Below are positions 8,604 to 33,692 of a DNA stretch of 64,000 nt, piece after piece (position 1 is the first letter of the stretch; every line of letters starts with the position of its first letter). The notes under the pieces are model-generated. The model did not search any database. It had not been told where the DNA came from and worked only from the letters and a program-made list of their open reading frames with translations. Both the position numbers and the translations under genes were made by a program. Source of the stretch: an uncultured bacterium (lineage in GTDB: Bacteria > Zixibacteria > MSB-5A5 > UBA10806); assembly GCA_965541585.1 (NCBI GenBank), contig CBEUCH010000001.1, positions 32,001 to 96,000 on the forward strand. Reading direction: 5' to 3'.

Positions 8604-8734
8604 TGCGGGCATTTATTAGCGGGCAATAAACTCCTGCTTCTTTACTCTATAACAATTTACAGCAATGGTTCGGAAAGTGGCCTCCGGAGTCGCCGCAACT
8701 CTAAATCTTTCCCTCGTAGCATATCGCCTGTCTG

Positions 8735-8761
8735 TTAATCCCCTGTCATAAGTGCCGATAA
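8735..8761 (+). promoter_or_regulatory. Sigma-28 (FliA/WhiG)-like promoter candidate
   Basis: TTAA-N15-GCCGATAA just upstream of ATG 8775. Confidence 0.45.
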
Positions 8762-8774
8762 TATTACCGAAGTT

Positions 8775-9890
8775 ATGAAGATAATTCATACATCAGCGGT
8801 CCACTTTGGGAGACCGTTCACAGATCCCGGAATGCCCGGCGATAAACTGAGGGCCGGGATAAAGTCTATTTTCTCAAAAATCATCGACATAGCTAATGAG
8901 GAATCGGCTGAACTGCTGATATTGGCCGGAGATACATTCGATAATTTGAATGTCTCCCAAAATCTGCTGGATTTCTTTATCAGCGAGGTTAAACGGTTGA
9001 ATAAGACTCGTGTGGCAGTTCTACCCGGATCTCAGGACCGATACGAAAAGGGAAGCTTCTGGGAGCAATGGAGGATACTCCAGCCGGCGGAGAATCTCTA
9101 TATTCTGGGCGATCCTGAGAAGCTGTACGTTGAGATTCCCGAGATTTCTGTTACCGTTTACGGTTATTCGCCAGCGAGCGATGATAAGGCCGATGATATT
9201 CCGGGACAGCTGAAAATCATCGATGGATCTGATTTTCATATAGCGGTTTTATATGGTCATCTGAACTCAGATCCAGATCAGAATCAAAGCGAATTCCCAT
9301 TGAGCTATGATAAGCTGGCATCTATCCCATTTGACTATATTGCATTTGGCGGCCAACCGGAGTTTCGGAGTTTCGTGGACGTCGGCTTGCGGGCCGCTTA
9401 TGCCGGTTCACCTGTGGTGCTATCGCCGGAATGGAAAGATGCCGGTAATATTCTATCAATAGATCTGCAAAAGGACTCGCTGAATGTGGAGCCAAGGAAG
9501 GTGGATGGATTCGTCTGGAAAAAGACCGAGATTTCGATGGAAGCAATAGCCAATCTGGAAGACTTGAAGAACAGGATTATCGAGATGGCCGGACCGAACA
9601 CCTCTTTGAAGGTTACTCTCTCGGGCCTGGCGCTTCTGGAGGCCGGATTGAATCTGGATCATCTTCGAGACGAACTGGAAGATCAATTTCTTCATCTCGA
9701 GTTTATCGACCGGACCAGGGTTTTGCCGGATAACATATCCGAGGTTAAGGTTCACGAGAAAACGATATTGGGCCAATACCTGAAAGTGATGGTCGATAAA
9801 TTGAACAAGGCCTCGGGGTCTGAAAAAGAGGATCTGGAAAAATCTATGAAGATCGGATATTCGCTTTTATCGGGCAGGGAGATCTGGTAA
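8775..9890 (+). CDS. SbcD/Mre11/YhaO-like metallophosphoesterase with degenerate metal-binding motifs
   Basis: HTSAVHFG, LAGDTFD, LPGSQD, DYIAFGGQP, YAGSP and YhaO-like C-terminus; adjacent to a Rad50-like ATPase. Confidence 0.85.
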   Translation: MKIIHTSAVHFGRPFTDPGMPGDKLRAGIKSIFSKIIDIANEESAELLILAGDTFDNLNVSQNLLDFFISEVKRLNKTRVAVLPGSQDRYEKGSFWEQWRILQPAENLYILGDPEKLYVEIPEISVTVYGYSPASDDKADDIPGQLKIIDGSDFHIAVLYGHLNSDPDQNQSEFPLSYDKLASIPFDYIAFGGQPEFRSFVDVGLRAAYAGSPVVLSPEWKDAGNILSIDLQKDSLNVEPRKVDGFVWKKTEISMEAIANLEDLKNRIIEMAGPNTSLKVTLSGLALLEAGLNLDHLRDELEDQFLHLEFIDRTRVLPDNISEVKVHEKTILGQYLKVMVDKLNKASGSEKEDLEKSMKIGYSLLSGREIW

Positions 9891-9891
9891 A

Positions 9892-12009
9892 ATGCAGATC
9901 TCTCATATCATATTAAAGGATTTCGGCCGGTTTGGAGACTTCTCGTGTGATTTCTCACCCGGTTTGAATCTCATCAAAGGCCCCAACGAAGCCGGCAAAT
10001 CAACCCTGGCCGAGGCCATAACGGCGGTACTCTTCGTGGACCCGGCGTCGAGGGGTGAAAAAATCCCGAGGGCCGTCAACTGGGGGGGCAGCCACGGCCC
10101 GGTAATAGAAGCGGTTTTAGATGTCGATGGCAGTTCATTCAAGCTGACCAAAGATTTCGGGCAGGGTATCGTGGAGATGTCAAAAGAGAACGAAGCGGTA
10201 TCATCGGGCGAAACCGGGACCATTAATACCTGGGTATCTGATAAACTCGGAATACCTTCCCCGGAAATCTTCAAGGCCACGGCCTGCATTGGCCAGGGAG
10301 AGATAAGCCATATTGATGATTCCATTGAAGCGATTAAGGATAAACTGGAATCGCTGGTTACCGGAGGCAGGGAAGAAATGGCCGCCTCTATTACGGTCAA
10401 GAAAATTCGCGAGAGAATGAATCAGATTGCCGGGGAAGATGGCCAATCCGGGGGAGAAATCGGAGGAATCAAGGCGCTCGTTGATGAACTCGGCTATAAT
10501 GTCGATAGGCTTCAACGCGATATTGCGAGCCTGGGAGAGAAAAGAGCCGATCTGATACAGATGGAGACTACTTTCAGAAACGTAGCCGAGGACCTGTCAT
10601 CAAGTAAAGAAAAACACAAGCTTGGTTCAGAAGCCTGTGAATATGAAAAGAGAGTCTCAGCACAGGCTTCGGAGTTTGACCAACTCGATAAGAGAATAAA
10701 GCGGGCCGGAGAGGCGAAGGAGAAAATCGAGTCATTGAAATCCGAACGATCACAATTTATGAAGATAACCCGGGATGAGATAGTCGATATCGAGCAGATT
10801 GAAAGCAGCCTGAATCACCTGTCAGCCAAATATGCCGAGCTGGAGGAAGAAGCTTTAGAGACAGAAGGAGATTTAACCGGGTATAAGACTGGCGGGATCC
10901 ATGACGTACCGTCCCTGGTAGGGTTATTGTCCAGCGGTCTTTTTGCTATTTCACATTCTCAGGGTTTTTTCCCCGAATTCTATCCTCATTTGTGGTATGC
11001 GCTTGGCGGATCTCTTGCGCTTTTAATGCTCGGCCTTTCGATTATGATCTCAAGAAGGCAACATCGCACCTTTCTATCGAAGAGGTACGATAAGCTTGCC
11101 GGTAAGCTTGATAGTCTGAAAGGAGATATTGAGAGCCGGAAGAACAGGCTGTCCGAAAAGCTTCAGCAGTTTTCAGTATCTACTGTGGAAGAGTTGAAAA
11201 GGAGCCTCTGGGGGTTAGAAGAGAATGAAAAGCGAATCGAAAAGGAGACATCGTATTATAATGAGATACTCAGCGGCCAAACCCTCGCCGATTTGCAGAA
11301 GCAGCATAGCGATCTGAGTCAGCAGTTGGAAGCTGCATCCAAGGAGAAAGAGAGATTATCGCAATATATGACTGACTCTGCAGATCTCGAGAGGCAAAAG
11401 CTGGTGATCAATGAATTCGAGGAGAGGGTTAAGGATCTGGAGCGCGAGCGAGTTATTCTCCTTCAGCAGATCGAGACCGCGGAGGGGGGATCGGAGCTTT
11501 TGGCAAGCTACCTCGAGCGTAGCGAAAGGACGAAAAACAGAATGGAGGTCCTGAAGCGCGAGCTGGCCATTCTTGAACTGACCGCCCAGTGTATTGAGGA
11601 AGCCCGCTATAATGTTCTGGTCTCGAAGCTGGATGTTTTAAATAAGCAGACATCAAAAATCCTCGACGACCTGACATCGGGCCGTTATTCGAGAGTGCGT
11701 TTCGATAGATCGAATCTGAAATTTGAAGTCTGGTCAGATGATAAGGGCGAGTGGCTTTATCCGGAGAAATGGCTCTCGGCCGGCACAATGGACCAGATAT
11801 ATCTGGCTGCCCGTCTGGCCCTTGCCGATATAGTCTCGGAGGAAAAGAACTCAATATTGATACTGGATGATCCCTTCGCCAGCTACGATGAAAAGCGGTT
11901 GGAGAACGCTATGAAGGTCATAAAGGAACTTTCGGCAAACCATCAGATTTTGCTCCTCACCAGCCAGGACCATTACGATAAATGGGCTGACTCAACCATC
12001 AATTTGTAA
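9892..12009 (+). CDS. SbcC/Rad50/YhaN-like coiled-coil ATPase with two central TM segments
   Basis: Walker A GPNEAGKST, signature LSAGT, Walker B ILILDDPF, long coiled coils. Confidence 0.88.
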   Translation: MQISHIILKDFGRFGDFSCDFSPGLNLIKGPNEAGKSTLAEAITAVLFVDPASRGEKIPRAVNWGGSHGPVIEAVLDVDGSSFKLTKDFGQGIVEMSKENEAVSSGETGTINTWVSDKLGIPSPEIFKATACIGQGEISHIDDSIEAIKDKLESLVTGGREEMAASITVKKIRERMNQIAGEDGQSGGEIGGIKALVDELGYNVDRLQRDIASLGEKRADLIQMETTFRNVAEDLSSSKEKHKLGSEACEYEKRVSAQASEFDQLDKRIKRAGEAKEKIESLKSERSQFMKITRDEIVDIEQIESSLNHLSAKYAELEEEALETEGDLTGYKTGGIHDVPSLVGLLSSGLFAISHSQGFFPEFYPHLWYALGGSLALLMLGLSIMISRRQHRTFLSKRYDKLAGKLDSLKGDIESRKNRLSEKLQQFSVSTVEELKRSLWGLEENEKRIEKETSYYNEILSGQTLADLQKQHSDLSQQLEAASKEKERLSQYMTDSADLERQKLVINEFEERVKDLERERVILLQQIETAEGGSELLASYLERSERTKNRMEVLKRELAILELTAQCIEEARYNVLVSKLDVLNKQTSKILDDLTSGRYSRVRFDRSNLKFEVWSDDKGEWLYPEKWLSAGTMDQIYLAARLALADIVSEEKNSILILDDPFASYDEKRLENAMKVIKELSANHQILLLTSQDHYDKWADSTINL

Positions 12010-12105
12010 ATCCCATCGATTTAGTATAATTTTTGCCTCGAACCGGCTGTCGGTTTAGAATTCTCTTGATTTGTCGGTCCGGATTTCTTTTTTTCATTAT
12101 GCCAT

Positions 12106-12600
12106 ATGGATAATTTATGGGCAGCTTGGCGACGAGACTTCATATTAGGCCCTAAGAAGAAGGGTTGTGTTTTTTGCACCCGGATCAGACAAAGAGCAGA
12201 TCGTCGGAATTTGATTGTTTATAGAGGCAAGCGGAATATTATCATTATGAATAAATATCCCTACAATGCCGGGCACCTGATGGTTGTGCCGAAAGCCCAT
12301 AAGGGAAAGCTCGGTAACCTGACCTCTTCCGAATCGAATGAAATGTTTGAATTGACCAGAAGATCGGTGGAGGTTCTCGAAAAGGCAATGCCTGCAGACG
12401 GCTTCAATATCGGGCTGAACATAGGTTCCGATGCCGGGGCCGGCATAAACGACCATGTTCATGTTCATATTGTTCCCCGGTTCAAGGGAGATACCAACTT
12501 CATGACCGTGGTCGGTGAAGTCAAGGTTCAGTCTTTCTCCATGGTCGATATATACGATATGATAAAGCCCGGCTTCGATCAATTGAGGACCAGATCTTGA
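12106..12600 (+). CDS. HIT domain protein (Ap4A phosphorylase-like)
   Basis: LWAxWR, CVFC, NKYPYNAGHLMVVP, HVHVHIVPR.GDTNF. Confidence 0.92.
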   Translation: MDNLWAAWRRDFILGPKKKGCVFCTRIRQRADRRNLIVYRGKRNIIIMNKYPYNAGHLMVVPKAHKGKLGNLTSSESNEMFELTRRSVEVLEKAMPADGFNIGLNIGSDAGAGINDHVHVHIVPRFKGDTNFMTVVGEVKVQSFSMVDIYDMIKPGFDQLRTRS

Positions 12601-14195
12601 GGATTCCGAAGAAAAAAGAGCTTTTAGAGCTTCAAAAAAAATATCGCACCGATAAGAAGATCGGCGAGGTCTATGGTGTCCCGGCACGTCTTGTGGCATA
12701 CTGGCGCAGCAAAAAGAAGATAGGCCCATATTCATTTCCGAAATATGGCGAGGAGAAGATCTTAGAGCTCTGGGAAAGGTACGGGGATGATGCCAGGGCG
12801 GGCGCGGAGCTCGACATCTCGGCGGCCGGTTTCAGGCAATGGAGGCGGAAATACGGAATTAGCAGAAAGCCGTTGCAATTGAGACTGGAACAGCTCGAAT
12901 TGGGTCTCATAGATCCGGGCCGGAAGAGGAATTCCCGAAGGGAGACTGCTGTGCAGAAGATACTGGCCAGAAAGTCGGGCCTCAAGAGAGTGGAGGTCGG
13001 GCAGATAGTCAACGTGGAGCCGGACCTCGCCATGTCGCATGATAATTCTGATCTGGTAATTGATTATTTCAAGCAGATCGGAGCGCCCAGGATCTGGGAT
13101 CCGAATAAAATCATAATAGTGCTGGATCGTAGAATGCCTGCCGAATCACATGAGGCCGCCGAGGCTCAGAGGACGATCAGGGAATTTGTAAAAAAACAAA
13201 AGATCAAGAATTTCTATGACATAGGCGAGGGCGTCTGTCATCAGGTAGTGGTCGAAAAGGGTTTTATGCTGCCGGGGCAGCTTGCCACAGGGACCGACTG
13301 GCATGCCACGTCGTATGGGTGCCTGGGTGCGGTATCGACCTATGTGAGCACCTCCGAAATGGCCGCGATATGGGCCGTTGGAAAGATATGGCTGCGAATC
13401 CCACCCTCATTAAAGATTATTGTCAACGGAAGCCTGGGGCGAGGAGTCTATGCCAAAGATATTATGCTGAAATTGATTCGCGATATGTCTCCCGATGCCA
13501 CAAACTACAGAGCGCTCGAGTTTCATGGTTCGACTATTGCTGGGATGTCGGTTTCGGAACGGTTCACAATGACGATTGTCGCTATGGAGATGGGGGCCAA
13601 ATCGGCGATGGTTCCATTTGATGACATCACCGGGCGATATTTGAAAAAAATCACCAAATCCCGGCTGACGCCGATCAAATCGGACCCCGATGCAATATAT
13701 GATGATGAAGTAGAGATTGACATCAGCTATCTGACCCCGCAGGTGGGCTGTCCCGAGGGCTCCAGAGGCGTGGTGCCGGTGGAGGAAACCAGCGGCAGGA
13801 GGATCGACCATGTCGTTGTCGGATCCTGCGTAAACGGCCGAATCGACGATCTGGAGATCACCGCCAGGATTCTTCGGGGGAGAAGAATTCATCGCGATCT
13901 AAGGATGATCATAGTGCCCGGCTCGCGGAAGGTGCTGACGGAGGCTCTTGACAGGGGATATATAAAGACATTCATCGAGTCCGGCTGTCTGGTTGTAAAT
14001 CCGGGTTGCTGGCCATGTCCAGGTGCTCACTCGGGAAACATCGCGAGGGGGGAGAGAGTCCTGACCGCCGCCGGCGCCGGTTATTATCGCAGTGACGAAT
14101 CTAACAATTCCGAGGTATATCTGGCTTCTCCTGCAACTGCGGCCGCCTCCGCGCTGGAGGGGGCCATCGCCGACCCCAGAAAGTATGTCAAATGA
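12597..14195 (+). CDS. Tandem-HTH fused to LeuC/HacA-like aconitase-family large subunit, degenerate active site
   Basis: About 100-aa basic N-terminus with two HTH-like repeats, then KILA..SG, GVCHQV, GSCVNGR, NPGCWPCPG, YLASPATAAASA. Confidence 0.85.
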   Translation: MRIPKKKELLELQKKYRTDKKIGEVYGVPARLVAYWRSKKKIGPYSFPKYGEEKILELWERYGDDARAGAELDISAAGFRQWRRKYGISRKPLQLRLEQLELGLIDPGRKRNSRRETAVQKILARKSGLKRVEVGQIVNVEPDLAMSHDNSDLVIDYFKQIGAPRIWDPNKIIIVLDRRMPAESHEAAEAQRTIREFVKKQKIKNFYDIGEGVCHQVVVEKGFMLPGQLATGTDWHATSYGCLGAVSTYVSTSEMAAIWAVGKIWLRIPPSLKIIVNGSLGRGVYAKDIMLKLIRDMSPDATNYRALEFHGSTIAGMSVSERFTMTIVAMEMGAKSAMVPFDDITGRYLKKITKSRLTPIKSDPDAIYDDEVEIDISYLTPQVGCPEGSRGVVPVEETSGRRIDHVVVGSCVNGRIDDLEITARILRGRRIHRDLRMIIVPGSRKVLTEALDRGYIKTFIESGCLVVNPGCWPCPGAHSGNIARGERVLTAAGAGYYRSDESNNSEVYLASPATAAASALEGAIADPRKYVK

Positions 14196-14695
14196 AGAAA
14201 ATGATCAGGGGCCGCGTCCACCGGCTGGGGCATTATATCAGTATCCGTGACATATTTCCCGACTCGCACCTTTCGTTGACCGATCCGAGTGAGATGGCGG
14301 TACATGCGCTTGAAGGCTGCGATCCCGAGCTATCGTCGAAGATCAAAAAGGGAGATATAATTGTCGCCGGCAAGAATTTCGGGAACGGACCGCAAAGGGA
14401 ACAGGCAATCCTGGCATTGAAAGAGGCCGGTGTCGCATGTGTGGCGGCAACTTCATTCGGCCGTGTTTTTTACAGGGAGACGATAAATTCCGGGATGCCG
14501 CTGGTGGAGCAGCCTGAAGCTTATGAAAAAATCAAAAACGGCGAGACCATCGAAATTGACTTGGACGCGGGAGAAATCCACTGTAAGAAAGGGCCGCTGA
14601 AATTCGATCCCCTGCCGGATTTTATGATGAGGATGCTCGATGCCGGCGGCTTGATTCGGTATACGAAGGAAACTATAAAGAATCGACATTTATAA
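14192..14695 (+). CDS. LeuD/HacB-like small subunit, degenerate
   Basis: GDIIVAGKNFGNGPQREQA, SFGRVFYRETINSG, LDAGGL; ATGA-coupled to the large subunit. Confidence 0.85.
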   Translation: MKKMIRGRVHRLGHYISIRDIFPDSHLSLTDPSEMAVHALEGCDPELSSKIKKGDIIVAGKNFGNGPQREQAILALKEAGVACVAATSFGRVFYRETINSGMPLVEQPEAYEKIKNGETIEIDLDAGEIHCKKGPLKFDPLPDFMMRMLDAGGLIRYTKETIKNRHL

Positions 14696-15057
14696 TCTTC
14701 ACTGTCTTGTCCTGGCTTCATCCGAATGTTTTCATCATCATAATCGCAACCTTAGCACAGGCCTTAAGGAATTCGGCCGAATTCTCAGTATTGGATGATG
14801 TATGGCACAATTTCCGCGATCCCCGATGTGACAGGGCAGCCCTGGGCCGAAACCTTAGATTATCCGCTCATCAGGGCGATCTTACACGCCGGTAGTTTTT
14901 TCCAGGAAGGGCGACTATTTTTCCGGATTTTGTATTGCAGATATTCCTTCCGATTCTAAGTTGATTCCATAACCTGTATAAAACTGGAGACTTACAGAGC
15001 CTCGCGATCAGCCGCATGGTATGGCATGGGCTTTGAATAATCCCTATTGGGAGATAT

Positions 15058-17409
15058 ATGGAAATGGCGAAAGAAACGGGGAGCGCGATGGCCTTAAAAA
15101 GATTTGTGGTGCTGGCTCTGATATCGTTTTCGATAGCCACGGTAGCATCGGCGCAGATGACGCCGGAGCAGAAGAGATTATACGAAGAGTATCTAAGGGA
15201 AAGGGCCGGTGGCTCGACATCGGCCGGTATTAGCGATTTTGACCACTATATCACGCCGCCTGTTTTTTCGAACCGAGGTTTAGATCTTATAGATGAACGG
15301 GCTCCGAAGGACACGGTCGTGGTATCGCTGCCGTCATCGGCCGGTGAAATCAAGATGTTCGGTTATAACATGTTCGAGGGTTCCCCGGAGAGTTTTTCAC
15401 CCATAATGGAGGCCACGCCCCCGCCGGATTACAAGCTTGGACCGGGCGATAACGTCCTGGTTAACATCTGGGGCCGGGTCGATATGCAGCTGGAGTTGAC
15501 TATTGACCGGGAAGGCAAAGTCTTCATCCCGAAAGTAGGCGAGATTATCGCCTGGGGTCTGACCATGGAGGGTTTCAAGAAGCGTCTCCAGACTTCACTC
15601 TCCAAATACTATACCGATTATGAGCTATCAGTATCGCTGGGGAAGATCAGGCGGATTAAGATCTTCGTATACGGGGAGGTTAAGAAACCCGGAGGTTATA
15701 CGATATCGTCTCTATCCACTCTCTTCAGCGCTCTGCACATGGCGGGAGGGGCAAATGGAAACGGTAGCCTTCGCAACATCAAGCATATCAGACATAACAA
15801 AGTCGAAAATGAGATTGACCTCTACCGGTTCCTCTTGACCGGTGACAATACGCAGGATGCGGAATTGCATTCCGGCGACGTGATTTTCATACCAGTAGTG
15901 GGGCCCAAGGTGAGCATTACCGGCCAGGTGAAGAGGCCGGCGATATACGAGCTTTTTGGCGCTGAAAGACTATCCGATCTTATTGAACTGGCGGGCGGTT
16001 CTACGGCTGAGGCTCATCTGGAGATGGTCGATGTTGATCGGATCGCCGAGGACGACAACCGGATCCTGCTGACAGTAGATCTATCCGATGAACAATACGA
16101 TGATGACAATAATCTGGTTCTCTTCGATGGTGATAGAATCCGTGTTCCCTCTATGTTCGGGCTGCAGAAAAATACTGTGACCCTGGCTGGTCATGTCAAG
16201 CATCCCGGCTCTTATGAGTTAACCGATTCGATGAGGGTATCCGACCTGATCGATGGCGGAGAGCAGCTGATAAGAGATTCCTTCACCAAAAGGGCGAATC
16301 TATTCAGGACCTGGCCTGATCTGACTCGTGAAGTCTATGCCGTTGACATCGATAGGATAATTCGCGGGACAGATTCTGATAATTACCTGCTGATGGATAA
16401 AGACAGTCTTGTGGTTTATTCGCAGAGCGATATCAGGCGGCGGATGACGGTTTCAATCTCGGGCACCGTTAAGGATCCGGGAACATATGAGTACTTTCAG
16501 GGCATGAGGCTGTCGGATTTGATATTTCTGGCGGGAAACGTCCTGAAGCAAGCTTATCTCCTTCGGGCGGAGATCGCCCGCGTCGATCCCGGCAGGCCTG
16601 CGGATATGATCTTTGCAAATCTCGAAGAAGCAATCGAGGAAAAGATCGGGCCCAAAGATATCCTGCTCGAAGAGGACGATATTGTCTACATCAGATCCAT
16701 TCCCCGCTACCGAATTGGGCAGAGTGTTATAATCGAGGGGGAGGTAGAGTTTCCGGGGAGTTATGCATTAATCCAGGAAAATGAGCGGTTGCTCGATTTA
16801 TTTGAACGCTGCGGTGGATTGACACCCGATGCTTTCCTCGAGGGGATGGTCTTCAAGCGAGAATCTATAATAATGGATTTAGAAAAACATCAGGTCATAG
16901 CCATTCTCGCCTCCACCGAGGCTACGGTGCTGGACAGTCTGAATCGTCCAATACCCAAATTGACGGGGGAACTCAACATGAGCCGGGTCAACAGGATCAT
17001 CATAGATACCAACAGGCTATCCCGGAATCCTGATTCGCCCGACAACGTTGCGCTGCGCAACGGAGATTATATCTATATACCGCAGAAACCATCGGGTGTT
17101 CAGGTTCTGGGCGCGGTAGCATCATCAGGAACCATATCGTTTGAATATGATAGGAAGCCCGGATATTTCATAAACGAGGCCGGGGGATATACAGTCAATG
17201 CAAATAAGGGCCAGGTTAGGCTGGTCAAGGCGAACGGTAGGATTTTTGCCGGGAGGAGGGCCTTTAAAAGGGAGGTCGACTCCGGAGATGTCATTGTCGT
17301 GCCCTACAAGTTGAAAAAAGAGAGGGAATGGCTCCGTTCGACTGGATCGATGTTGGGAATCGTAGCATCTATCGCCACGACCGTATTCGTGATCGATAGG
17401 CTGCGTTAG
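15058..17409 (+). CDS. Polysaccharide export protein with multiple SLBB domains (Wza/KpsD-like)
   Basis: DYKLGPGD Poly_export motif and repeated VxGxVxxPGxY SLBB units; true start may be 15064 or 15088. Confidence 0.9.
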   Translation: MEMAKETGSAMALKRFVVLALISFSIATVASAQMTPEQKRLYEEYLRERAGGSTSAGISDFDHYITPPVFSNRGLDLIDERAPKDTVVVSLPSSAGEIKMFGYNMFEGSPESFSPIMEATPPPDYKLGPGDNVLVNIWGRVDMQLELTIDREGKVFIPKVGEIIAWGLTMEGFKKRLQTSLSKYYTDYELSVSLGKIRRIKIFVYGEVKKPGGYTISSLSTLFSALHMAGGANGNGSLRNIKHIRHNKVENEIDLYRFLLTGDNTQDAELHSGDVIFIPVVGPKVSITGQVKRPAIYELFGAERLSDLIELAGGSTAEAHLEMVDVDRIAEDDNRILLTVDLSDEQYDDDNNLVLFDGDRIRVPSMFGLQKNTVTLAGHVKHPGSYELTDSMRVSDLIDGGEQLIRDSFTKRANLFRTWPDLTREVYAVDIDRIIRGTDSDNYLLMDKDSLVVYSQSDIRRRMTVSISGTVKDPGTYEYFQGMRLSDLIFLAGNVLKQAYLLRAEIARVDPGRPADMIFANLEEAIEEKIGPKDILLEEDDIVYIRSIPRYRIGQSVIIEGEVEFPGSYALIQENERLLDLFERCGGLTPDAFLEGMVFKRESIIMDLEKHQVIAILASTEATVLDSLNRPIPKLTGELNMSRVNRIIIDTNRLSRNPDSPDNVALRNGDYIYIPQKPSGVQVLGAVASSGTISFEYDRKPGYFINEAGGYTVNANKGQVRLVKANGRIFAGRRAFKREVDSGDVIVVPYKLKKEREWLRSTGSMLGIVASIATTVFVIDRLR

Positions 17410-17517
17410 GGAGCGGGTGAAGCGATTGATGGATATCACAGGCAAGGAATCGTTAAGCCGAAGAAGTTAGAAGCCGGGTAGAAAATTTCGAGGGATCAAT
17501 AAAAGCAGAGGTGTGAT

Positions 17518-20102: not shown

Positions 20103-20156
20103 AGAATAAGAGGATGACCGTCGGTCCAGATAAACATTGAGATTTTAGAGATTCAG

Positions 20157-23497: not shown

Positions 23498-24675
23498 AGG
23501 TAGCAATCAAGGCAACTCATATTACGCATGGGGGCGGGCTTGTTCATCTTAACAAGCTGATTGAATGGTTTTCCAGAATATCACCGGAGAAGGAATTCGT
23601 AGTTCTCGGAAAATCGGGACAGGAGAAATTATTTGTTAAGGCTCCGGAGAATTTCGAATACAGGTTTTATAAAGCGCCGTCCTTGAACCTCTTTGCCCAG
23701 GTGTTCTGGGAGCGGTATAAGCTTGCGAGTGTAGTCAAAGAAATTGGATGCGATTTGCTGTTCGAGCCGGGTAATTATGGCGCCAGAAGCGTTCATTGCC
23801 CGAAGGTGACGCTGATACATAATATAGCGCCATTCGATAATCAATATATCAAGAAGGAAAATCCATACCAGAAGATAAGGCTAAAGCTTCTTAAGAGAGC
23901 GACCATCAGCAGTATGAGATCTTCCCAGGGCATAATTTATCTGTCCGAGTATTGCCGTGATTTCTTTTCCAGATACGTAGATAATTCCAGGCAGAAGACG
24001 GCGGCTATTTTTCACGGCAGGCCGGAATTCGTGGAGCCTGTGGATGAAACTGATGTGCTGTGTAGATATGGCATCGATGGCGACTATATCCTCTCGGTGT
24101 CGCATATATATCGTTACAAGAAAACCAAAGAGATGGTCCGGAGCTATCTACATGCGCTGGGGGATAATCCCGATCTGCCGCCGCTCTATATCGCCGGCGG
24201 CAATTACGATTCGGAATATGTCGAACAGATCAAACGCATGATCAGAAAGCAGTCAGGCAGCGGCCGCGTTCATTTTCTGGGAGCAGTTCCCGAGGCCGAC
24301 CTTCAGGCGCTCTACAGAAATTGCAGGGCATTCTTATTTTCCTCGGTACTGGAGACATGTTCGATAATTCTTATTGAGGCCATGACTCACGGCTGTGCTA
24401 TGGCTTGTTCAAATAAGGGTGTTATCCCTGAGGTCACGGGGGGAGCCGCGCTGTATTTCGACCCGGATGATATGGAGGATTTTGCGTTTAAGATAAGATC
24501 GATATGTGAAGATAACGAATTGAACTGGTTTTTAAGGGGGAAAGCTAGGGAGAGAGCCCGGTTTTTCTCTTGGGAAAAGGCTGCAAAAGAGACTCTTAAC
24601 TTTCTCCATGAAGTCATGGATTCGGACAGTATCCGCTCGAGGGAACGGGAAGGCCTGGAGGGGAAGCTTGCGTAA
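23494..24675 (+). CDS. Glycosyltransferase family 4
   Basis: GGG N-terminal motif, SSVLETCSIILIEAM (E-X7-E), FSWEKAA. Confidence 0.88.
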   Translation: MKVAIKATHITHGGGLVHLNKLIEWFSRISPEKEFVVLGKSGQEKLFVKAPENFEYRFYKAPSLNLFAQVFWERYKLASVVKEIGCDLLFEPGNYGARSVHCPKVTLIHNIAPFDNQYIKKENPYQKIRLKLLKRATISSMRSSQGIIYLSEYCRDFFSRYVDNSRQKTAAIFHGRPEFVEPVDETDVLCRYGIDGDYILSVSHIYRYKKTKEMVRSYLHALGDNPDLPPLYIAGGNYDSEYVEQIKRMIRKQSGSGRVHFLGAVPEADLQALYRNCRAFLFSSVLETCSIILIEAMTHGCAMACSNKGVIPEVTGGAALYFDPDDMEDFAFKIRSICEDNELNWFLRGKARERARFFSWEKAAKETLNFLHEVMDSDSIRSREREGLEGKLA

Positions 24676-24715
24676 GATGGGATTTGAAAGAAAAACCTAA
24701 AAGCGGAGATTTAGG

Positions 24716-25927
24716 ATGGACTATTTGAAGCAGCCTCTTGGATTCAAGATAAAAAAGGTTCTCAGATACCTGAAGATGTATGGGGGCGGTAGAACCTACA
24801 TTAAGGTTTTGGGGCAATTGCATATGCGCAAGGAATACGAGTCGCTGGCGCCGTATATCGGCCGGATAGGAAAAAAGCAGACTGTGGGTTTGATTGGTTG
24901 CGGTAATTATGCTTTCTCGAATATAGCCTATTTCCTTAATAAGACGTTCGGAAAAGTACTTGCAGGCTGTATGGATATCAATGAAAACCGTGCGGCCTCG
25001 CTTGCGTCTCACTACGGAATACCTATCCACACGGGAGATTCCAACGAAATTATTCAGAACAAAAATATTTGTCTTATATATATAGCTTCGAACCACGCGT
25101 CTCATGCTGAATATGCTATTAAGGCTTTGAATCACGGAAAACATGTATATATAGAAAAACCCCATGTAGTATCTCTTGATCAGCTATTTAGATTATACAA
25201 TGCTATGAAATCATCCAAAGGCAAGATCTTTTTAGGGTTTAACCGGCCAAGGAGCCGTTTTGGCTCGTTGATTAGAAGATATCTTGGCGAGCAGAGCGGC
25301 CAAGGGATGTATAACTGGTTTATCGCCGGTCACGCAATCGACCCGGATCACTGGTATTTCAGTGAGGGTGAGGGTGGACGCGTTCTGGGCAATCTATGCC
25401 ACTGGATCGATTTTGTTTTCAGGATGGTCGCCGAAAATACCTATCCCCTTACAATCAACCCAACGCGTCACGTCAAGAGCGATTGCGATATCGTCGTCAC
25501 ATATGTCTTCGGAGAAGGCACGATTGCAAATATATCATTCTCTGCTAAGGGACACACATTCGAAGGCGTAAAAGAAAGTTTCAGGGCTCAAAAGGGAAAC
25601 GTGCTGATTACCATGGATGATTTCAAGCGGATGACGGTCGAGATCGCCGACGCAAAGAAACGCTACCACAATTTTTATCGCGATCACGGCCATAGGCATA
25701 ATATAGTATCCGCTTATAAGAACGTCCATTTCAACGAACAGTATTGCCGCGAAACGGAATATTCTCAAATCTTGAATTCGGCTTGGCTTTTTTTGAAGAC
25801 AAAAGAGGCTTTAGAAAAAAATGAACGTATAACTCTAAATTCCTTTGAGGAGTCGCTTGCCAATATGCCGGGAAACCGGGGTGAGAATATGATGGATAAT
25901 CAGAATTCCATTTTGCAGGAAATATGA
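24716..25927 (+). CDS. Gfo/Idh/MocA family oxidoreductase
   Basis: IGCGNYA, HVYIEKP, GFNR, GGRVLGNLCHWID. Confidence 0.88.
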   Translation: MDYLKQPLGFKIKKVLRYLKMYGGGRTYIKVLGQLHMRKEYESLAPYIGRIGKKQTVGLIGCGNYAFSNIAYFLNKTFGKVLAGCMDINENRAASLASHYGIPIHTGDSNEIIQNKNICLIYIASNHASHAEYAIKALNHGKHVYIEKPHVVSLDQLFRLYNAMKSSKGKIFLGFNRPRSRFGSLIRRYLGEQSGQGMYNWFIAGHAIDPDHWYFSEGEGGRVLGNLCHWIDFVFRMVAENTYPLTINPTRHVKSDCDIVVTYVFGEGTIANISFSAKGHTFEGVKESFRAQKGNVLITMDDFKRMTVEIADAKKRYHNFYRDHGHRHNIVSAYKNVHFNEQYCRETEYSQILNSAWLFLKTKEALEKNERITLNSFEESLANMPGNRGENMMDNQNSILQEI

Positions 25928-26053
25928 AATTGAGATTGACCAGGATATCAAAACGTCTTCACGGAATATTTCGAGGAAAAGAAAGGCAAGTTAGAGCAAT
26001 CTAGCTGGAGGAAAATAGCCGATAATAGCGCATAACGGGATGTAGAGGGGAAA

Positions 26054-28222
26054 ATGAAGCAGGTGTTACAATACAACCGCCAGCGGGCTCCCAGAGTCGA
26101 GGATATACCCTCGCCCGCTATGAAAGGCCCGGGTCTGATCGTTAGCAATAGATGTTCGCTGATATCCGTCGGAACGGAAAGACAGATAATTAAATTATCG
26201 CAGTTGTCGCTGGCGGGGAAGGCTCGCCAACGGCCTGATATGGTCAGGCAGGTTCTGGCAAAAGTGCGGACGGAGGGATTTGTCTCAACCTATTACAAAG
26301 TCAGGGGACGTCTGAAGACGCCGGTTCCACTGGGCTACAGCTCGGCGGGTACTATAGAAAAGGTGCACTCGTCGTTGGATAGATGGACTCCGGGGGAAAG
26401 GGTCGCCTGCGCGGGCTATGGTTATGCCTGTCACGCCGAGACGATATATGTGCCTACCAATCTGGCCGTAAAGATCCCGGACAATGTGACCTTTGAAGAG
26501 GCAAGTTTCGTCACCCTGGGGGCAATTGCCATGCAGGGTGTTCGGATAGCGGACGTTAGTTTAGGCGAAACCGTGGCTGTGATCGGATTGGGTCTCCTGG
26601 GGCAATTGACGTGCAGACTGTTGTCGGCCTCCGGATGCCGGGTCATCGGATTGGACATTGACGAAAATAAACTGGCCATTGCACAAAAAGAAGGAATCGA
26701 ATGGGCTCTGCCGGCCGACGATGCCTCCGTCGCAACGGTTTTAGATTTGACCTCCGGAAAAGGTGTTGACTCGGCCATTATCACCGCCGCCTCGGATTCC
26801 TCCGGTCCGGTGGAAACAGCCGGGCGAATTTGCCGGGATAAAGGAACAGTAGTAGCTGTCGGCTCGGTCGGGTTGAACGTGCCGCGGAAAATATTCTATG
26901 AGAAAGAGCTGGAACTTAAGCTTTCTCGTTCGTATGGGCCCGGGCGTTACGACTACAATTACGAGGAAGCCGGCAGGGATTATCCTTACGGCTATGTTCG
27001 CTGGACCGAAAACCGAAACATGGAATCGTTTCTCCAGCTGGTATCAACCGGCAGGGTAGATATCAAAAACCTGATTACCCATCGGTTTGATATAAGCCAG
27101 GCAGACAAGGCCTATAGCCTGATTTCGGGCCGGGATTCGGAAAGCTACTTAGGCGTGGTGTTGAATTATCCCGCGGAAAATCCCGAACGCCGAAACAGAT
27201 TGACCCTGCCAAAGAATAGCGCCATGAAATTGAGCCGATCATCGACGATCCCGATCGGTTTCGCGGGGGCGGGAGAGTTTGCCTCGGGTGTGCTGCTGCC
27301 TAATATCAAACGGATAGCGGCATACGATAACAAATTAATTATGTCCGGAGGCGGGGTTTCAGCCGCCACTGCCGCAAAGAGGTTCGGTTTTAAAGCGACG
27401 GTATCGAGCTTCGACGAGATTATAGGAAATCCGGAAATAGGGGCCGTCTTCATTGCAAACAGGCATCATCAGCATGCGGAAGCAGTGATAAAATCACTTC
27501 TTGCCGGCAAGCCCACGTATGTGGAAAAACCACTATGCTTGAATCGAGAGGAACTGGAGCAGATCAGGTCCGCTTACATGGCGACGGGGGCTCCATTGAT
27601 GGTCGGTTACAACCGCAGATTCGCACCTCTGATTAGAAAGATCAAGGAAAAGCTCAGGGGAACAGGCTACCCGGTTTCAATGCACTACAGGATCAACGCC
27701 GGATTCATTCCAACCGACAACTGGGTCCAGGATCCCGAATGCGGAGGCGGACGGATAATCGGCGAGATATGCCATTTCATCGATCTGCTCTCATATCTCT
27801 CAGGCGCCAGACCCGTGAAGGTTCATGCCGAGGCTCTATCCATGCCGAACGATCGATTTCGCTCCGACGATAACCTCCAGGTGATGATACGTTTTTCGGA
27901 TGGCTCGGTGGGCACCATAAATTATGTAGCGTCCGGGAATAAAAACGTTCCGAAAGAGTATCTGGAAATAATCGGCGGAAGCCTGGTTATCCAGTTAAAT
28001 GATTTCAAGATGCTGACGATCGCCGGTGATAAAGGATTACAGATGGATAAGAAACGGGGCCAGGATAAAGGTCATCGGAAAATGCTCGAACTCTGGAGCC
28101 ACTACCTGGCAGCCGACCTCGGATCTCCGATTCCTTTTGACAGCCTGATTGATACGTCCATAACAACATTCGAGATACTGGAATCATTATCGAGCGGGAA
28201 GCCAGTTTGGATAAACGGTTGA
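26054..28222 (+). CDS. Bi-domain oxidoreductase (Zn-ADH-like plus Gfo/Idh/MocA)
   Basis: SLISVGTE, PLGYS, GLGLLG, SRSYGPGRYD, RWTENRN, VEKP, GYNRRF, GEICHFID, DKGH. Confidence 0.92.
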   Translation: MKQVLQYNRQRAPRVEDIPSPAMKGPGLIVSNRCSLISVGTERQIIKLSQLSLAGKARQRPDMVRQVLAKVRTEGFVSTYYKVRGRLKTPVPLGYSSAGTIEKVHSSLDRWTPGERVACAGYGYACHAETIYVPTNLAVKIPDNVTFEEASFVTLGAIAMQGVRIADVSLGETVAVIGLGLLGQLTCRLLSASGCRVIGLDIDENKLAIAQKEGIEWALPADDASVATVLDLTSGKGVDSAIITAASDSSGPVETAGRICRDKGTVVAVGSVGLNVPRKIFYEKELELKLSRSYGPGRYDYNYEEAGRDYPYGYVRWTENRNMESFLQLVSTGRVDIKNLITHRFDISQADKAYSLISGRDSESYLGVVLNYPAENPERRNRLTLPKNSAMKLSRSSTIPIGFAGAGEFASGVLLPNIKRIAAYDNKLIMSGGGVSAATAAKRFGFKATVSSFDEIIGNPEIGAVFIANRHHQHAEAVIKSLLAGKPTYVEKPLCLNREELEQIRSAYMATGAPLMVGYNRRFAPLIRKIKEKLRGTGYPVSMHYRINAGFIPTDNWVQDPECGGGRIIGEICHFIDLLSYLSGARPVKVHAEALSMPNDRFRSDDNLQVMIRFSDGSVGTINYVASGNKNVPKEYLEIIGGSLVIQLNDFKMLTIAGDKGLQMDKKRGQDKGHRKMLELWSHYLAADLGSPIPFDSLIDTSITTFEILESLSSGKPVWING

Positions 28223-29547
28223 AAGTTCTCTATATATCTCACTATTTCCCCCCCGAGGTCAACGCACCCGCGGTTCGTGTCTCCGAGACGGCGGAACGCT
28301 GGGCGCAAAGGGGAGCGGATGTCACGGTTCTCACCTGTTTCCCCAACCATCCAAGCGGCATCATCCCGGAAGAATACCGGGGGTATAAACATCTCTTAGA
28401 GGTACGAAACAACGTACGGATTGTGAGAACCTATGTTTATGCGGCTCCAAACGCTGGTATTATCAGACGAATAATAAACTATTTTTCATTTATGTTATCA
28501 TCGATAATTCTCGGATTCCGGCAGGTGGGCGAACCCGATGTCATCATAGCAACATCGCCGCAGTTTTTCGTTGCCATTGCCGGTTATATTTTGAGCCGTC
28601 TTAAGCGATGCAAATTCATCTTTGAGGTCAGGGATATCTGGCCGGAGGAGATCGTTGCGGTGGGCGCCATGACGAACAGGATCGCCATAAGGACCTTAGA
28701 GGCGATCGAAGTCTTCCTGTATAAAAAAGCCGATCTCATAGTAGCCGTTGCACAGGGTACGATAGACCTGTTGGCAAAAAAAGGAATTTCCCAATCGAAA
28801 ATTGCTCTGGTGCCAAACGGCGTAAATATGAACCTCTTTCAGAGTGGTTCCGACGGGCTGTCGATCCGCAGAAAATTAAGAAAGCCGCATGATTTTCTTG
28901 TCGGGTATATCGGTACTCACGGGATGGCCCACAGGCTTGATATTGTCCTGGAAGCTGCGGAAATTCTACGGAATAACCGCGGCATCACTTTTCTTTTCGT
29001 TGGAGACGGCGCCGAGAAGAGCGAATTGATGCTGAGGGCTGAGAATCTGCAATTACCGAACGTAATATTCCATGATCAGGTCGAGAGGGCCGAAGTGCCG
29101 GATTATTACCGGGCCTGCGACGTTTGTCTTGTTCCCCTGCGGAAGGCGGATCTGTTCACAAAGAATATCCCCAGCAAGATCTATGAGATTATGGCCGCCG
29201 GCAAACCGATTATTATTTCTACCGAAGGGGAGTCAAGACGTTTAATCGAAAACGCCGGCGCCGGCCTGGCGGTCAGGCCGGAGGATGCCGGGGACCTGGC
29301 GGAAAAGATCATGATACTATTCAATGATCGGGAACTCTGCCGAAACTCAGGAAGAAACGGCTATTCATTTGCCCTGGCCAACTGTTCACGAAACAGACTG
29401 GCCGATCAATATCTCGAGATACTCCAGAAAGTTGTCAGCGGCAAGAGAGAGTTTTCACCGGCTAAACAGAAAAGCGTATCTACCGAAAATATAGATATAC
29501 CATATGAATACGCAGCGGAATCGGCGGAAACAGAAGCGGACGGGTAA
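28207..29547 (+). CDS. Glycosyltransferase family 4 (WbuB-like)
   Basis: HYFPPEVNA, FPNHPSG, ATSPQFF, EVRDIWP, PSKIYEIMA. Confidence 0.9.
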   Translation: MDKRLKVLYISHYFPPEVNAPAVRVSETAERWAQRGADVTVLTCFPNHPSGIIPEEYRGYKHLLEVRNNVRIVRTYVYAAPNAGIIRRIINYFSFMLSSIILGFRQVGEPDVIIATSPQFFVAIAGYILSRLKRCKFIFEVRDIWPEEIVAVGAMTNRIAIRTLEAIEVFLYKKADLIVAVAQGTIDLLAKKGISQSKIALVPNGVNMNLFQSGSDGLSIRRKLRKPHDFLVGYIGTHGMAHRLDIVLEAAEILRNNRGITFLFVGDGAEKSELMLRAENLQLPNVIFHDQVERAEVPDYYRACDVCLVPLRKADLFTKNIPSKIYEIMAAGKPIIISTEGESRRLIENAGAGLAVRPEDAGDLAEKIMILFNDRELCRNSGRNGYSFALANCSRNRLADQYLEILQKVVSGKREFSPAKQKSVSTENIDIPYEYAAESAETEADG

Positions 29548-29580
29548 ATAGCCCGTGATAGATCCGGTGAAGGGGAACAC

Positions 29581-30987
29581 ATGCTAAGGGAACGTATGCA
29601 CGTCTTGAAAAAACTCGTATTCGTTGCGGATTTATGTCTGGTTGCCCTCGGTTTCCAGCTCTCCGTAATAATAGACCATTTGCGAACCGGCACGAGCGTT
29701 AATATTTTTTCAAGCGATAACCTTATGTTACCGGCTATAATCATCTGGGGAGCCGTATTCTGGTTTTCACGTGATTGCTATAGCGTCCGGCTTAGAAAAA
29801 TCAAGGATATCCTGATAGCATCGTCAAGGGCGGCGCTGATTTCATCCGGCCTGTTTCTGGCGTTCATATTTGCGGCAGGTCATCTGGAGGAAAGCAGGTT
29901 CCGGATTATTCTGTTTGTCGCCCTGAGCGCCGCTTTCATCTGTGTATTTAGAATATTGATAACATTGCTACTCGAGTATTATCGCTCTCGAGGATACAAT
30001 TATCAGACGGTCCTGATGGTCGGCACTGGCGTTACTGCCAGAGGTTTTGTTGATAAGGTATTAGACAATTCTCAATTCGGCCTGAAGGTTTCAGGTTTTC
30101 TCGACTGGGAAAGGCGACCGCACCTCTGGCGCTACAGGGATATACCCTGCATCGGAGATCTACAGAGCCTGCCCGAGCTTCTGAAGAACAGGCAGATTGA
30201 CTGGGCGGTCTTCGCCGTGGGGAGGAAGTATCTGAGCAAGATTGAAAAATCAGTCGAGATCTGCGAACGGATGGGTGTGCAGATTGCCGTTCTGGCGGAT
30301 TTCTTCCCCATGAGGTTAGCCAAAAAAAGGGTCGATTCATTTTTCGATTCCCCGCTCGTATGCTATGACACGGCTCCGGAACAGGGCCTCCCCATCGTAG
30401 CCAAGAGCTTTCTGGATAGATTCCTGGCAGCGCTTGGATTGGTAATGGGAGCCCCGATATTGCTGGCCACGGCTGCTCTGGTAAAAATTACATCCAAAGG
30501 CCCGATCATTTTTGCTCAGGAAAGGTGTGGTTTAAACGGCCGGAAATTCAGGTTATATAAATTCCGGACTATGGTTCACAACGCCGATAACCTCAAGAGA
30601 GACCTGACGCAATTTAACGACGTGGATGGGGCGGCATTCAAGATGAAGAAGGACCCCCGGATCACACCGGTGGGAAGGTTATTACGAAGGGCATCAATCG
30701 ATGAGATACCGCAGCTATTCAATATCCTCAGGGGAGACATGTCACTTGTGGGGCCACGTCCACCACTGGCAGAGGAGGTCGCCAGGTACGATCTCTGGCA
30801 AAGAAGGAAACTCTCGATGAAACCAGGGTTGACCTGCCTCTGGCAGATTAACGGGCGTTCCGATATCTCTTTTGAAGAATGGATGAAGCTCGATCTGGAA
30901 TATATAGATAACTGGTCTTTATGGGAGGATGCAAAAATCCTGGCGCGGACCGTCCCGGTGGTTTTCAGGGGAACCGGCGCAAGGTAG
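29581..30987 (+). CDS. Priming polyprenyl-phosphate sugar-1-phosphate transferase (WcaJ/WbaP-like)
   Basis: N-terminal TMs, KFRTM, DPRIT, DEIPQLFNIL.GDMSLVGPRP, KPGLT..WQ, DLEYI. Confidence 0.93.
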   Translation: MLRERMHVLKKLVFVADLCLVALGFQLSVIIDHLRTGTSVNIFSSDNLMLPAIIIWGAVFWFSRDCYSVRLRKIKDILIASSRAALISSGLFLAFIFAAGHLEESRFRIILFVALSAAFICVFRILITLLLEYYRSRGYNYQTVLMVGTGVTARGFVDKVLDNSQFGLKVSGFLDWERRPHLWRYRDIPCIGDLQSLPELLKNRQIDWAVFAVGRKYLSKIEKSVEICERMGVQIAVLADFFPMRLAKKRVDSFFDSPLVCYDTAPEQGLPIVAKSFLDRFLAALGLVMGAPILLATAALVKITSKGPIIFAQERCGLNGRKFRLYKFRTMVHNADNLKRDLTQFNDVDGAAFKMKKDPRITPVGRLLRRASIDEIPQLFNILRGDMSLVGPRPPLAEEVARYDLWQRRKLSMKPGLTCLWQINGRSDISFEEWMKLDLEYIDNWSLWEDAKILARTVPVVFRGTGAR

Positions 30988-31000
30988 AGAGGATCTGGAG

Positions 31001-32182
31001 ATGGCCAATATTCTGGTAGTGGAAGACGATTTTGCTGTTCAGAGCTGCATGGTTAGAGTTCTTGAGGCAGAGGGACATCGGATCTCCGCAGTCTCTGACG
31101 GGCTTGAAGCTTTAGGCAAGATCTATTCTCAGAGTTATGATCTTGCCATTCTGAGTGTCGTTCTTCCGCACGTTAGCGGCGCAGGACTTCTCGATGCGAT
31201 CAGAAAAAGAAGCCCTCGAACCATGGTAGTTATGGTATCCGGACAAGCGGATCGTGAATCCACAATCGAATCGCTGAGCAACGGGGCTTATGATTATATT
31301 AAGAAACCGTTGAAAGAAGGCGACCTTGAGAAAATCGTCCGCAATGCTCTCGAAGAGGGCCGCCTTATGAGGAATTCCGCTTATATCTACAAGGATAGCC
31401 GCAGGCAGGATAAATCCTCGATAAAGAGTGGAATCCGGTATGCGATATTCGATTCGTTACTGGCAGGATTTTCAATCTATCTGGCTTTCCTCGGCCAGAT
31501 CCAACTTTTCAGAGCGCTAGATCAGCCCTTACTCATGGGCCATAGCGAGTTTATACAAATGGCATTGGGCCTGACCTTTTGCTACGCGTTTTGGTTCGTA
31601 TTCCATCGTAATTACAGGGTAGATCTTCCTGGTTCCGGCCGGGAACTCGCGAGCCGGATCTGGAAAAATATAACAGGCGCCTATCTCTTGTTTGCTGCTC
31701 TGCTATTTCTCACAAGAAATATAAATTTCGCCGGCAGCAAGATAGCTGTCGGACTGGGATATATCCTGGGATTTCTGCTGATTCTGACCATCCGATTGAT
31801 CATAATTCCCGGTGCGATCACGAGATTTCAACGCGAGGGAAGGAAAGATATCATATTCGTTAGCTCCGGCAAACCAGCGGCTGGAGTAACTGAACAAGCC
31901 TTGCACCAGGACATGCCTGGAATTAGACACGGGCATATCGGGCGAGATCACACTGTAGGGAAAGGCATACCACCGAACGCCATAGTGATAACCAGCCGCG
32001 AAGACGCTGACCGGCTCGTCCTCACCGATGATATAGAAGAACTATATATTGCGGGGGATGCATTATCGGCAGTGGAGGTCATGAATCTTCTGGATAGATT
32101 CAGAGGTCGTAAACTAAAAGTGGTCCTTATGAGCAGGACTGATGACGTTTTGCAGCGAGCCAGAATTCCTGCAAGAATTTAG
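31001..32182 (+). CDS. Pseudo-receiver domain fused to WcaJ-like N-terminal membrane domain
   Basis: MANILVVEDD...YDLAILSVVLP...GAYDYIKKP, then four TMs and a degenerate cytoplasmic domain. Start placed at ATG 31001 after GAGG/GGAG. Confidence 0.78.
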   Translation: MANILVVEDDFAVQSCMVRVLEAEGHRISAVSDGLEALGKIYSQSYDLAILSVVLPHVSGAGLLDAIRKRSPRTMVVMVSGQADRESTIESLSNGAYDYIKKPLKEGDLEKIVRNALEEGRLMRNSAYIYKDSRRQDKSSIKSGIRYAIFDSLLAGFSIYLAFLGQIQLFRALDQPLLMGHSEFIQMALGLTFCYAFWFVFHRNYRVDLPGSGRELASRIWKNITGAYLLFAALLFLTRNINFAGSKIAVGLGYILGFLLILTIRLIIIPGAITRFQREGRKDIIFVSSGKPAAGVTEQALHQDMPGIRHGHIGRDHTVGKGIPPNAIVITSREDADRLVLTDDIEELYIAGDALSAVEVMNLLDRFRGRKLKVVLMSRTDDVLQRARIPARI

Positions 32183-33690: not shown

Positions 33691-33692
33691 CT

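Follow-up and report, generated by a model that had tools for sequence, protein, structure and literature searches.

Repeated loss of catalytic residues under purifying selection in enzyme-like proteins at the junction of two Zixibacteria gene blocks

An uncultured bacterium of the Zixibacteria (assembly GCA_965541585.1) carries, on contig CBEUCH010000001.1, a group of proteins that resemble enzymes stripped of their active sites. In the 64,000-nucleotide window that we analysed (positions 32,001 to 96,000 of the contig, forward strand), six open reading frames (ORFs) between window positions 8775 and 32182 resemble SbcD, LeuC, LeuD, HisC, PaaK/CapK and a receiver domain; all are present, co-oriented and free of stops, as the original prediction, made from the sequence alone, had stated. 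Why would a genome keep such proteins, and do they belong together? The answer first offered was that random decay would not strike active sites so selectively, and that the six may form one coordinated set of sensors or scaffolds regulating envelope polymer synthesis or a differentiation state. The first part of this answer has held and the second has not: we conclude that the enzymes of the stretch lost catalysis repeatedly under purifying selection, likely after taking on a second, non-catalytic binding job, an explanation to which we give, reading from sequence, a little better than an even chance.

The source genome (G000, of family f1; G, C, L and f designate genomes, contigs, loci and families) was compared with a set of 151 genomes; G129 belongs to the same genus and G084 is a complete genome from the same family. 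Which residues are catalytic is taken from general knowledge of each family, and forms without the catalytic motifs are called dead in what follows. Profile searches matched all the families named, the PaaK-like protein in NCBIfam only. The SbcD-like protein (8775-9890; the main features between 8735 and 35147 are on the plus strand, save the junction described below, which has none) has the calcineurin-like fold, capping domain and C-terminal partner-binding helices of Mre11/SbcD (Foldseek E 5e-15 to Mre11:Rad50 structures), and lacks the di-metal ligands of that family (DxH, GD, GxH(D), H, GHxH): the Asp of motif I is replaced by Ala, GxHD reads GSQD and GHxH reads GGQP. In the LeuC-like protein (12597-14195) DH has become DR, DSH has become DWH and the NRNF/R motif is gone, while the full set of three Fe-S cysteines is retained, as are 9 of the 14 residues scored; the LeuD-like small subunit (14192-14695) has lost TD and GSSRE. 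The body, of the LeuC/LeuD type, scores above NCBIfam cut-offs (NF001614, TIGR01343, TIGR02086 and TIGR02087). The HisC-like protein (17518-18693) has His in place of the pyridoxal phosphate (PLP) lysine and Gly in place of the next Arg, the PaaK/CapK-like ligase (18690-20102) lacks the TSGSTG loop and the Glu of YGxxE, and the receiver (30929-32182) has Ser for its phospho-Asp at codon 31154-31156 (AGT versus GAT, a two-base change). Set against intact paralogues or orthologues, the claimed loss was borne out for SbcD, LeuD, HisC, PaaK and the receiver, whereas LeuC is just partly disarmed.

The receiver lacks its phospho-acceptor in this genome only. Its change is private to G000 and the Asp is kept in all six relatives that have the domain; loss of the phospho-Asp is not conserved among orthologues, as it would be in an atypical (pseudo-)receiver, and is probably a recent private mutation. 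On these comparisons, pseudoenzymes that are conserved or shared account for five of the six cases.

Are these genes decaying? Selection was measured as dN/dS (w, the ratio of nonsynonymous to synonymous rates) by the NG86 method, mainly between G000 and G129 with shadow-frame rows ignored; the comparison with G084 was saturated, and the dead LeuD has no same-genus partner, hence no value. For this pair w is 0.126 for SbcD, 0.080 for LeuC, 0.119 for HisC, 0.20 for PaaK and 0.22 for the receiver/transmembrane (TM) protein, against 0.083-0.186 for intact genes, and a second dead pair (G079/G084) gave 0.083-0.22. The LeuC body alone gave 0.08, 0.096 and 0.127 in three dead pairs, beside 0.036 and 0.07 for whole intact proteins, from which we conclude that constraint on this body is kept but somewhat relaxed. 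As dN/dS is far below 1, active sites are selectively struck and interfaces and other surfaces remote from the active site are preserved in dead forms, we conclude that the dead genes are under purifying selection and not in random, pseudogene-like decay.

Degenerate enzymes are also much rarer elsewhere in the genome. Our motif survey covered 247 proteins in G000, 19 of them degenerate, with six of the seven members in the interval and 13 of the 235 outside the window; these counts concern G000 alone, the interval was picked because of its degenerate density, and its glycosyltransferases and oxidoreductases lie outside the survey. GT4 and DegT families, for which the motif call is unreliable, were left out before counting, as were 11 further listed rows (fragments or off-target). 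An unsupervised scan for paralogue outliers was dropped in favour of this survey, being noisy and with ranks dominated by three-member families. The high density in the interval arises because two gene blocks adjoin here, a point to which we return.

Intact and dead relatives exist side by side for SbcD, HTH-LeuC (the LeuC-like protein with its putative helix-turn-helix head), HisC-like and PaaK-like proteins, and the losses are repeated, by different substitutions. SbcD is intact in 11 of 30 orthologous loci (f8, f12, f18 and one f14) and has lost its metal ligands in the other 19; four changes are needed, three of them forced by strong branches, and a single dead clade is rejected (p-AU 4e-8, on a quick tree). 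Across 11 dead forms of this order the C-terminal segment 312-371 is nearly invariant, and this is presumably the region in which known Mre11/SbcD proteins hold their ATPase partner. The gene that follows (9892-12009) encodes such a candidate partner, an SbcC/SbcE-like SMC ATPase with a hydrophobic central segment and no CxxC hook, whose Walker A motif is kept in nearly all loci and whose signature and Walker B motifs are intact in G000. We propose that the dead SbcD, through its predicted SbcC-binding segment, would hold this intact and likely membrane-anchored ATPase as a non-cutting clamp or tether on DNA, driven by ATP. The pair resembles SbcE/SbcF (YhaN/YhaO) of Bacillus subtilis, as described in the accessible part of PMC2811018, in having an SbcD-like gene followed by an SMC-like ATPase, a hydrophobic centre, no CxxC hook and the Mre11/SbcD fold, a likeness of gene order and protein features. 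Unlike SbcE/SbcF, most Zixibacteria orthologues of the nuclease partner (the 19 of 30 above) have no metal ligands, and the gene lies behind a site of the flagellar sigma factor (FliA) type.

The LeuC-like body carries an extra head of 110 residues, present in 148 of 151 genomes; in the window a putative tandem helix-turn-helix (HTH) occupies residues 1-102 and is followed by QLELGL (12891-12908). A tail of the form Q-[LM]-x-[LFI]-x-[FLI] ends the head in 52/52 orthologues, and we take it to resemble a sliding-clamp-binding motif. The head is modelled as two three-helix units (pLDDT 69); direct HTH hits are weak (E at least 0.4), and Atlas scores are 0.76-0.78 with ten out of ten in HTH-type families. 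The body is intact in 11 of the 52 loci (f12, f13, f16, f17) and degenerate in 41, a loss that needs two changes, with a single origin allowed by strong branches; among dead forms, identity is 62% for the head versus 29% for the body. All three Fe-S cysteines survive in seven of the 41 dead bodies and have been lost in 34. Fe-S sensing as a conserved role was therefore rejected for the phylum, and is possible in the genus of G000. Moonlighting aconitases are familiar from IRP1 and from CitB of B. subtilis; most dead HTH-LeuC forms depart from the IRP1 switch in having lost the ligands of the cluster. Archaeal-type LeuC/LeuD (HacA/HacB) hydro-lyases share the body family, and the Zixibacteria form differs from them in its putative tandem-HTH head with a QLxLx(F/L) tail and in the loss of substrate-binding residues. 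We suggest that dead HTH-LeuC is a DNA-binding regulator of which the head is the conserved part, the aconitase body serving as scaffold or ligand pocket and the dead LeuD being a fading passenger.

An intact HIT protein, ATP adenylyltransferase-like (12106-12600), stands beside HTH-LeuC in 52/52 loci; a prediction of the HIT and HTH-LeuC complex scored 0.00 and argues neither for nor against it. At two f8 loci (L167 and L168) the LeuD behind a fully degenerate HTH-LeuC is intact and may work in trans with another large subunit. A free-standing HTH-head family was considered and is unsupported, the search having given only nine short stand-alone hits (71-170 aa), mostly on short contigs and one labelled partial.

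Among HisC homologues, 54 of 114 lack the lysine, and about ten changes are needed on a FastTree tree in which branch support was not weighed. Two non-catalytic motifs, at residues 177-191 and 361-371, are invariant and specific to the clade of the dead form, and appear common to those of its members that keep the lysine. In 20 loci of the polysaccharide-linked form, Lys and Arg are both present in two (G072 and G115) and Lys is absent from 15; 19 of the 20, across several families, lie beside polysaccharide or PaaK/PHP genes, and the two intact relatives sit in a PaaK-PHP-aminotransferase trio. The dead HisC is kept in G084 and G079 after loss of Wza, the priming transferase and Wzi, and occurs alone in G032. 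Loss of the PaaK loop is more confined: the loop is absent from all five f1 orthologues and present in 24 of 25 other best hits, so that the dead form is seen only in family f1 (4/5 relatives), where it would be a younger, family-limited case. Class II aminotransferases of the HisC/CobD type and ligases of the CapK/PaaK type are found in capsule loci, as in the intact trios of G072 and G115, and the window proteins share their fold and family. Unlike those enzymes, the dead HisC has no PLP lysine and the dead PaaK no phosphate loop, and the dead HisC recurs in a Wza-WcaJ-Wzi block even where synthesis genes have been lost. The dead HisC may descend from a trio that probably made a capsule substituent, and may now be a binding accessory of a sigma54-type capsule export operon.

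An alternative is that chemistry has been changed rather than lost, through other reactions or shifted cofactor residues, with non-covalent PLP in HisC or an Fe-S cluster acting on a new substrate in LeuC. The Lys-less HisC forms do keep the PLP-binding Asp in 45/54 and the C-terminal Arg/Lys in 54/54, G000 LeuC has its three cysteines, and changed chemistry has been described for pseudokinases, according to the part of PMC10211241 available. Yet no conserved residue takes the place of the HisC lysine, where His, Asn, Arg, Gly or Glu is found, the metal-ligand positions of dead SbcD vary freely, and the cysteines are gone from most dead LeuC bodies. We consider changed chemistry quite improbable.

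Do the six proteins form one system? The stretch consists of two blocks. Block A is RlmD-SbcD-SbcC-HIT-HTH:LeuC-LeuD, and block B is Wza-HisC-PaaK-synthesis genes-priming transferase-receiver/TM protein-Wzi-484 aa ORF, with SbcD, LeuC, LeuD, HisC and PaaK in their dead forms. They meet at 14696-15021, beyond which a sigma54-type promoter-like site (15022-15037) precedes the Wza/SLBB polysaccharide export gene (15058-17409), the first of block B. Tight translational coupling, which had been claimed for the set, occurs within the pairs HIT/LeuC, LeuC/LeuD and HisC/PaaK, but gaps of 96, 362 and 108 nt divide the stretch. In the complete genome of G084 the two blocks are 2.75 Mb apart, A at 132-136 kb and B at 2,890 kb; in G129, G084, G079 and G105 block B is instead preceded by a homologue of G000 C10:5607-6932, and the A/B junction was not seen in the same-genus or same-family relatives examined. 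Misassembly was ruled out by an independent contig of a close strain spanning 14618-17556. We conclude that two gene blocks conserved in Zixibacteria are joined here, and that this junction is particular to the species.

A single coordinated sensor or scaffold system would fit the local density of degenerate enzymes, their co-orientation, the reality of the junction and the presence of alternative-sigma-type sites on both blocks. It is contradicted by the separation of the blocks in all relatives examined, the same genus included, and by loss patterns that do not co-vary: SbcD is intact and LeuC dead in f8 and f18, and the intact HisC-like enzymes of G072 and G115 occur in families whose sampled LeuC forms are dead. 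Losses of the dead variants fall in different lineages, the dead PaaK is confined to one family and the receiver is intact in the relatives. Synteny and co-occurrence, which the original prediction had itself named as its test, thus speak against a coordinated set, and we regard such a set as very improbable indeed; a link to lifestyle or differentiation is plausible from the promoter motifs that follow.

A FliA/sigma28-type promoter-like site (TTAAT, 14 nt, GCCGATAA) lies before the SbcD-like gene at 8735-8761. Scored with a matrix built without the SbcD site, sites of at least 13 bits precede SbcD in 21 of 30 orthologous loci (13/19 dead, 8/11 intact) and in 0/30 on the antisense strand. A sigma54-type site precedes block B in seven of nine heads (antisense 0/9); because kin are not independent, such counts show conservation and are not statistics. 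Where Wza is gone, the sigma54-type site is kept directly before HisC. FliA itself scores above the curated cut-off in 149/151 genomes. In G000 the motif TTAAG-N15/16-CCGATA is enriched upstream of genes, including rpoN, genes read from their sequences as motA-, pilM- and pilT-like, sensors, and the dead SbcD and S26 signal peptidase; it is most frequent at the expected spacing (24 sites at spacing 15 versus 3-16 at other spacings), and 42 genes have a site of at least 15 bits versus 14 antisense. The consensus equals, within one base of spacing, that of the attack-phase FliA regulon of Bdellovibrio bacteriovorus, in which non-flagellar genes lie behind FliA-type sites; the part of PMC3627812 available mentions no dead-enzyme set, and the Zixibacteria sites are known from sequence alone. 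The gene rpoN (C14:42300-43736) lies behind a strong FliA-type site, and sigma54-type sites stand before an flgB-like gene and pilin-like genes: the two sigma factors may be linked in a feed-forward loop.

Since intact relatives already have promoter-like sites and the HisC motifs are apparently common to Lys-keeping members, recruitment probably came first and loss of catalysis second: catalysis, backed up by paralogues, would then have been lost in several lineages by different substitutions. We predict that a FliA-type promoter drives expression of the proposed SbcD clamp in a motile stage.

If recruitment of this kind is general, similar cases should occur outside the window, and one such prediction worked. 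An S26 signal-peptidase paralogue just past the window (C1:97909-98589; L133:1909-2589), with matches in 146/151 genomes, has no catalytic Lys in any of nine top hits of this order, while Ser and Lys are both kept in 21/21 others. A FliA-type site precedes it in 8/9 of this order and 12/21 others (antisense 2/30), in a count whose matrix included the paralogue's own G000 site; its w is 0.088. We take it as a replicate of the pattern. Outside the window, degenerate proteins are enriched behind FliA-type sites, with p ranging from 0.0007 to 0.049 by cut-off and operon rule; the GAF-HisKA remnant, GGDEF-like and PD-(D/E)xK-like proteins, having been found through promoter-bearing genes, were excluded from these Fisher tests as circular. 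Among them, a degenerate GGDEF-like protein (C17:46784-47254) and a PD-(D/E)xK (GxxExxY)-like protein without its motifs (C1:194674-195066) lie directly behind sigma54-type sites, the latter looking dead in 4/4 hits with a site in 3/4. Signalling proteins without phospho-acceptor or ATP motifs are encoded at C2:45678-48107, C5:115934-118012 (the GAF-HisKA remnant), C1:144053-145120, C3:47953-50576 and C17:83700-84470, most of them behind or within FliA-type units. A class I aminotransferase (C4:135227-136417, L255) lacks the PLP lysine in 22/22 hits from 61 genomes and nine families; it lies upstream of genes that read as deoxynucleoside kinase-, folB-, panB- and panC-like. As this Lys-less protein has no FliA or sigma54 site within 300 nt, we conclude that the promoter link is a tendency and that pseudoenzyme retention is wider than the regulon.

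Could the dead enzymes instead be dispensable ones in slow decay, with no new job, drifting until deletion and kept meanwhile only since misfolding, truncation or polar effects do harm? A number of observations lean this way and count against recruitment. Intact paralogues of LeuC/D, the aminotransferase and PaaK exist elsewhere in the genome, as the proposed check for active copies revealed, and catalytic-site substitutions differ between lineages. Dead bodies evolve faster, w for SbcD being 0.126-0.184 in dead versus 0.104 in intact forms and dead HTH-LeuC standing on long branches, and the loss of Fe-S cysteines is graded. Parts are also shed: SbcCD is sporadically lost (the query used found no SbcD-like gene in 88/151 genomes), next to many dead fusions LeuD is absent or survives as a remnant, PaaK is lost sporadically, and the receiver domain is gone from three relatives. 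The regulatory link is partial, with no FliA-type site at HIT-HTH:LeuC in any of 30 loci, none before five dead SbcD genes of f5 and none near the class I aminotransferase; the enrichment is of modest size and varies with the operon rule (at a 14-bit cut, 3/13 vs 13/222, p 0.049, to 5/13 vs 18/222, p 0.004), and under the strict rule it is not significant once sigma54 sites are added (p 0.06-0.12). Finally, motifs were judged by eye in calling a form dead, and catalytic residues that have migrated are known (PMC10211241, in the part available). Slow decay is nonetheless hard to square with full-length retention over family-level distances (HTH-LeuC is mostly 480-590 aa across its 52 loci), with invariant polar motifs specific to dead clades, with promoter-like sites conserved before dead genes and with a HisC that outlasts Wza, the priming transferase and Wzi. 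We think it unlikely, and prefer recruitment to a binding job followed by loss of catalysis.

Most studies of pseudoenzymes deal with a single paralogue whose active ancestor is long gone. That they lose catalytic motifs while keeping fold and interaction surface, with scaffold or allosteric roles, is set out in the available part of PMC10211241; the present cases differ from pseudoenzymes in general in that loss recurs in parallel in many unrelated folds of one bacterial phylum, from orthologues intact in sister families. Pseudoenzymes and a broadened FliA regulon are thus known kinds, and what is new is that unrelated orthologues were disarmed repeatedly and in parallel, with sisters that are still intact and promoters that were already in place. 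Our literature search, in which subscription journals were largely uncovered and supplements excluded, found no paper on these Zixibacteria proteins.

The dead enzymes likely reflect a habit, spread through the phylum, of putting enzymes to new use as binding proteins without catalysis, some of them behind predicted flagellar-type promoters. A bolder and doubtful extension is a two-stage Zixibacteria life cycle run by a FliA/sigma54 cascade, its hardware partly housekeeping enzymes recruited while active and then repeatedly disarmed in separate lineages. That hardware would be, in an equally tentative list, a non-cutting, membrane-anchored DNA clamp of the SbcCD type, a dead signal peptidase, a dead capsule-export aminotransferase, kinases and receivers in dead form, and a DNA-binding protein that has an aconitase body and a motif of the sliding-clamp type. 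If this is true, the phylum as a whole would display a natural series of transitions from enzyme to pseudoenzyme. Several unrelated orthologue families that survive both intact and dead in sister lineages already allow one to ask whether a second job precedes the loss of catalysis. They also offer a candidate SbcCD-type DNA machine without a nuclease, and a way into the life cycle of this uncultured phylum. There is a practical side too, in that genes annotated as active enzymes can mislead metabolic reconstructions; many homologues of the dead HisC carry the annotation 'histidinol-phosphate aminotransferase'.

Some further features deserve brief mention. Degenerate HemC (PF01379) and RNase HI (PF13456) were not found in G000 by profile search, and a generic scan of 8500-18000 for sigma70 promoters and terminators was at chance level (12 vs 10.6 and 10 vs 9.3, respectively). 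The neighbours had been called canonical, rightly so: HIT is intact, and the capsule synthesis genes at 20157-30987 (heparinase II/III-like, three GT4 glycosyltransferases, two oxidoreductases and the priming transferase) are ordinary-looking, with gene content that differs between relatives. A weaker FliA-type site (14.7 bits) lies among them at 25996-26026, before a 722-residue oxidoreductase. The receiver/TM protein is a receiver domain fused to the membrane/regulatory half of a priming glycosyltransferase copy without its catalytic domain, and matches TIGR03025 at positions 2-226 only. In G084, G079 and G105 it consists of the membrane half alone (L091:13790-14458, L095:7232-7900 and L119), and in the first two this half is kept though the priming transferase gene has gone from the locus. 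Block B ends at 32185-35147 with a gene for a Wzi-like capsule assembly protein and a conserved ORF of 484 residues that has no match in Pfam. Further along, at 51507-52358, the window holds a second sigma70-group sigma factor gene, below the FliA cut-off, which reads as RpoD/RpoS-like.

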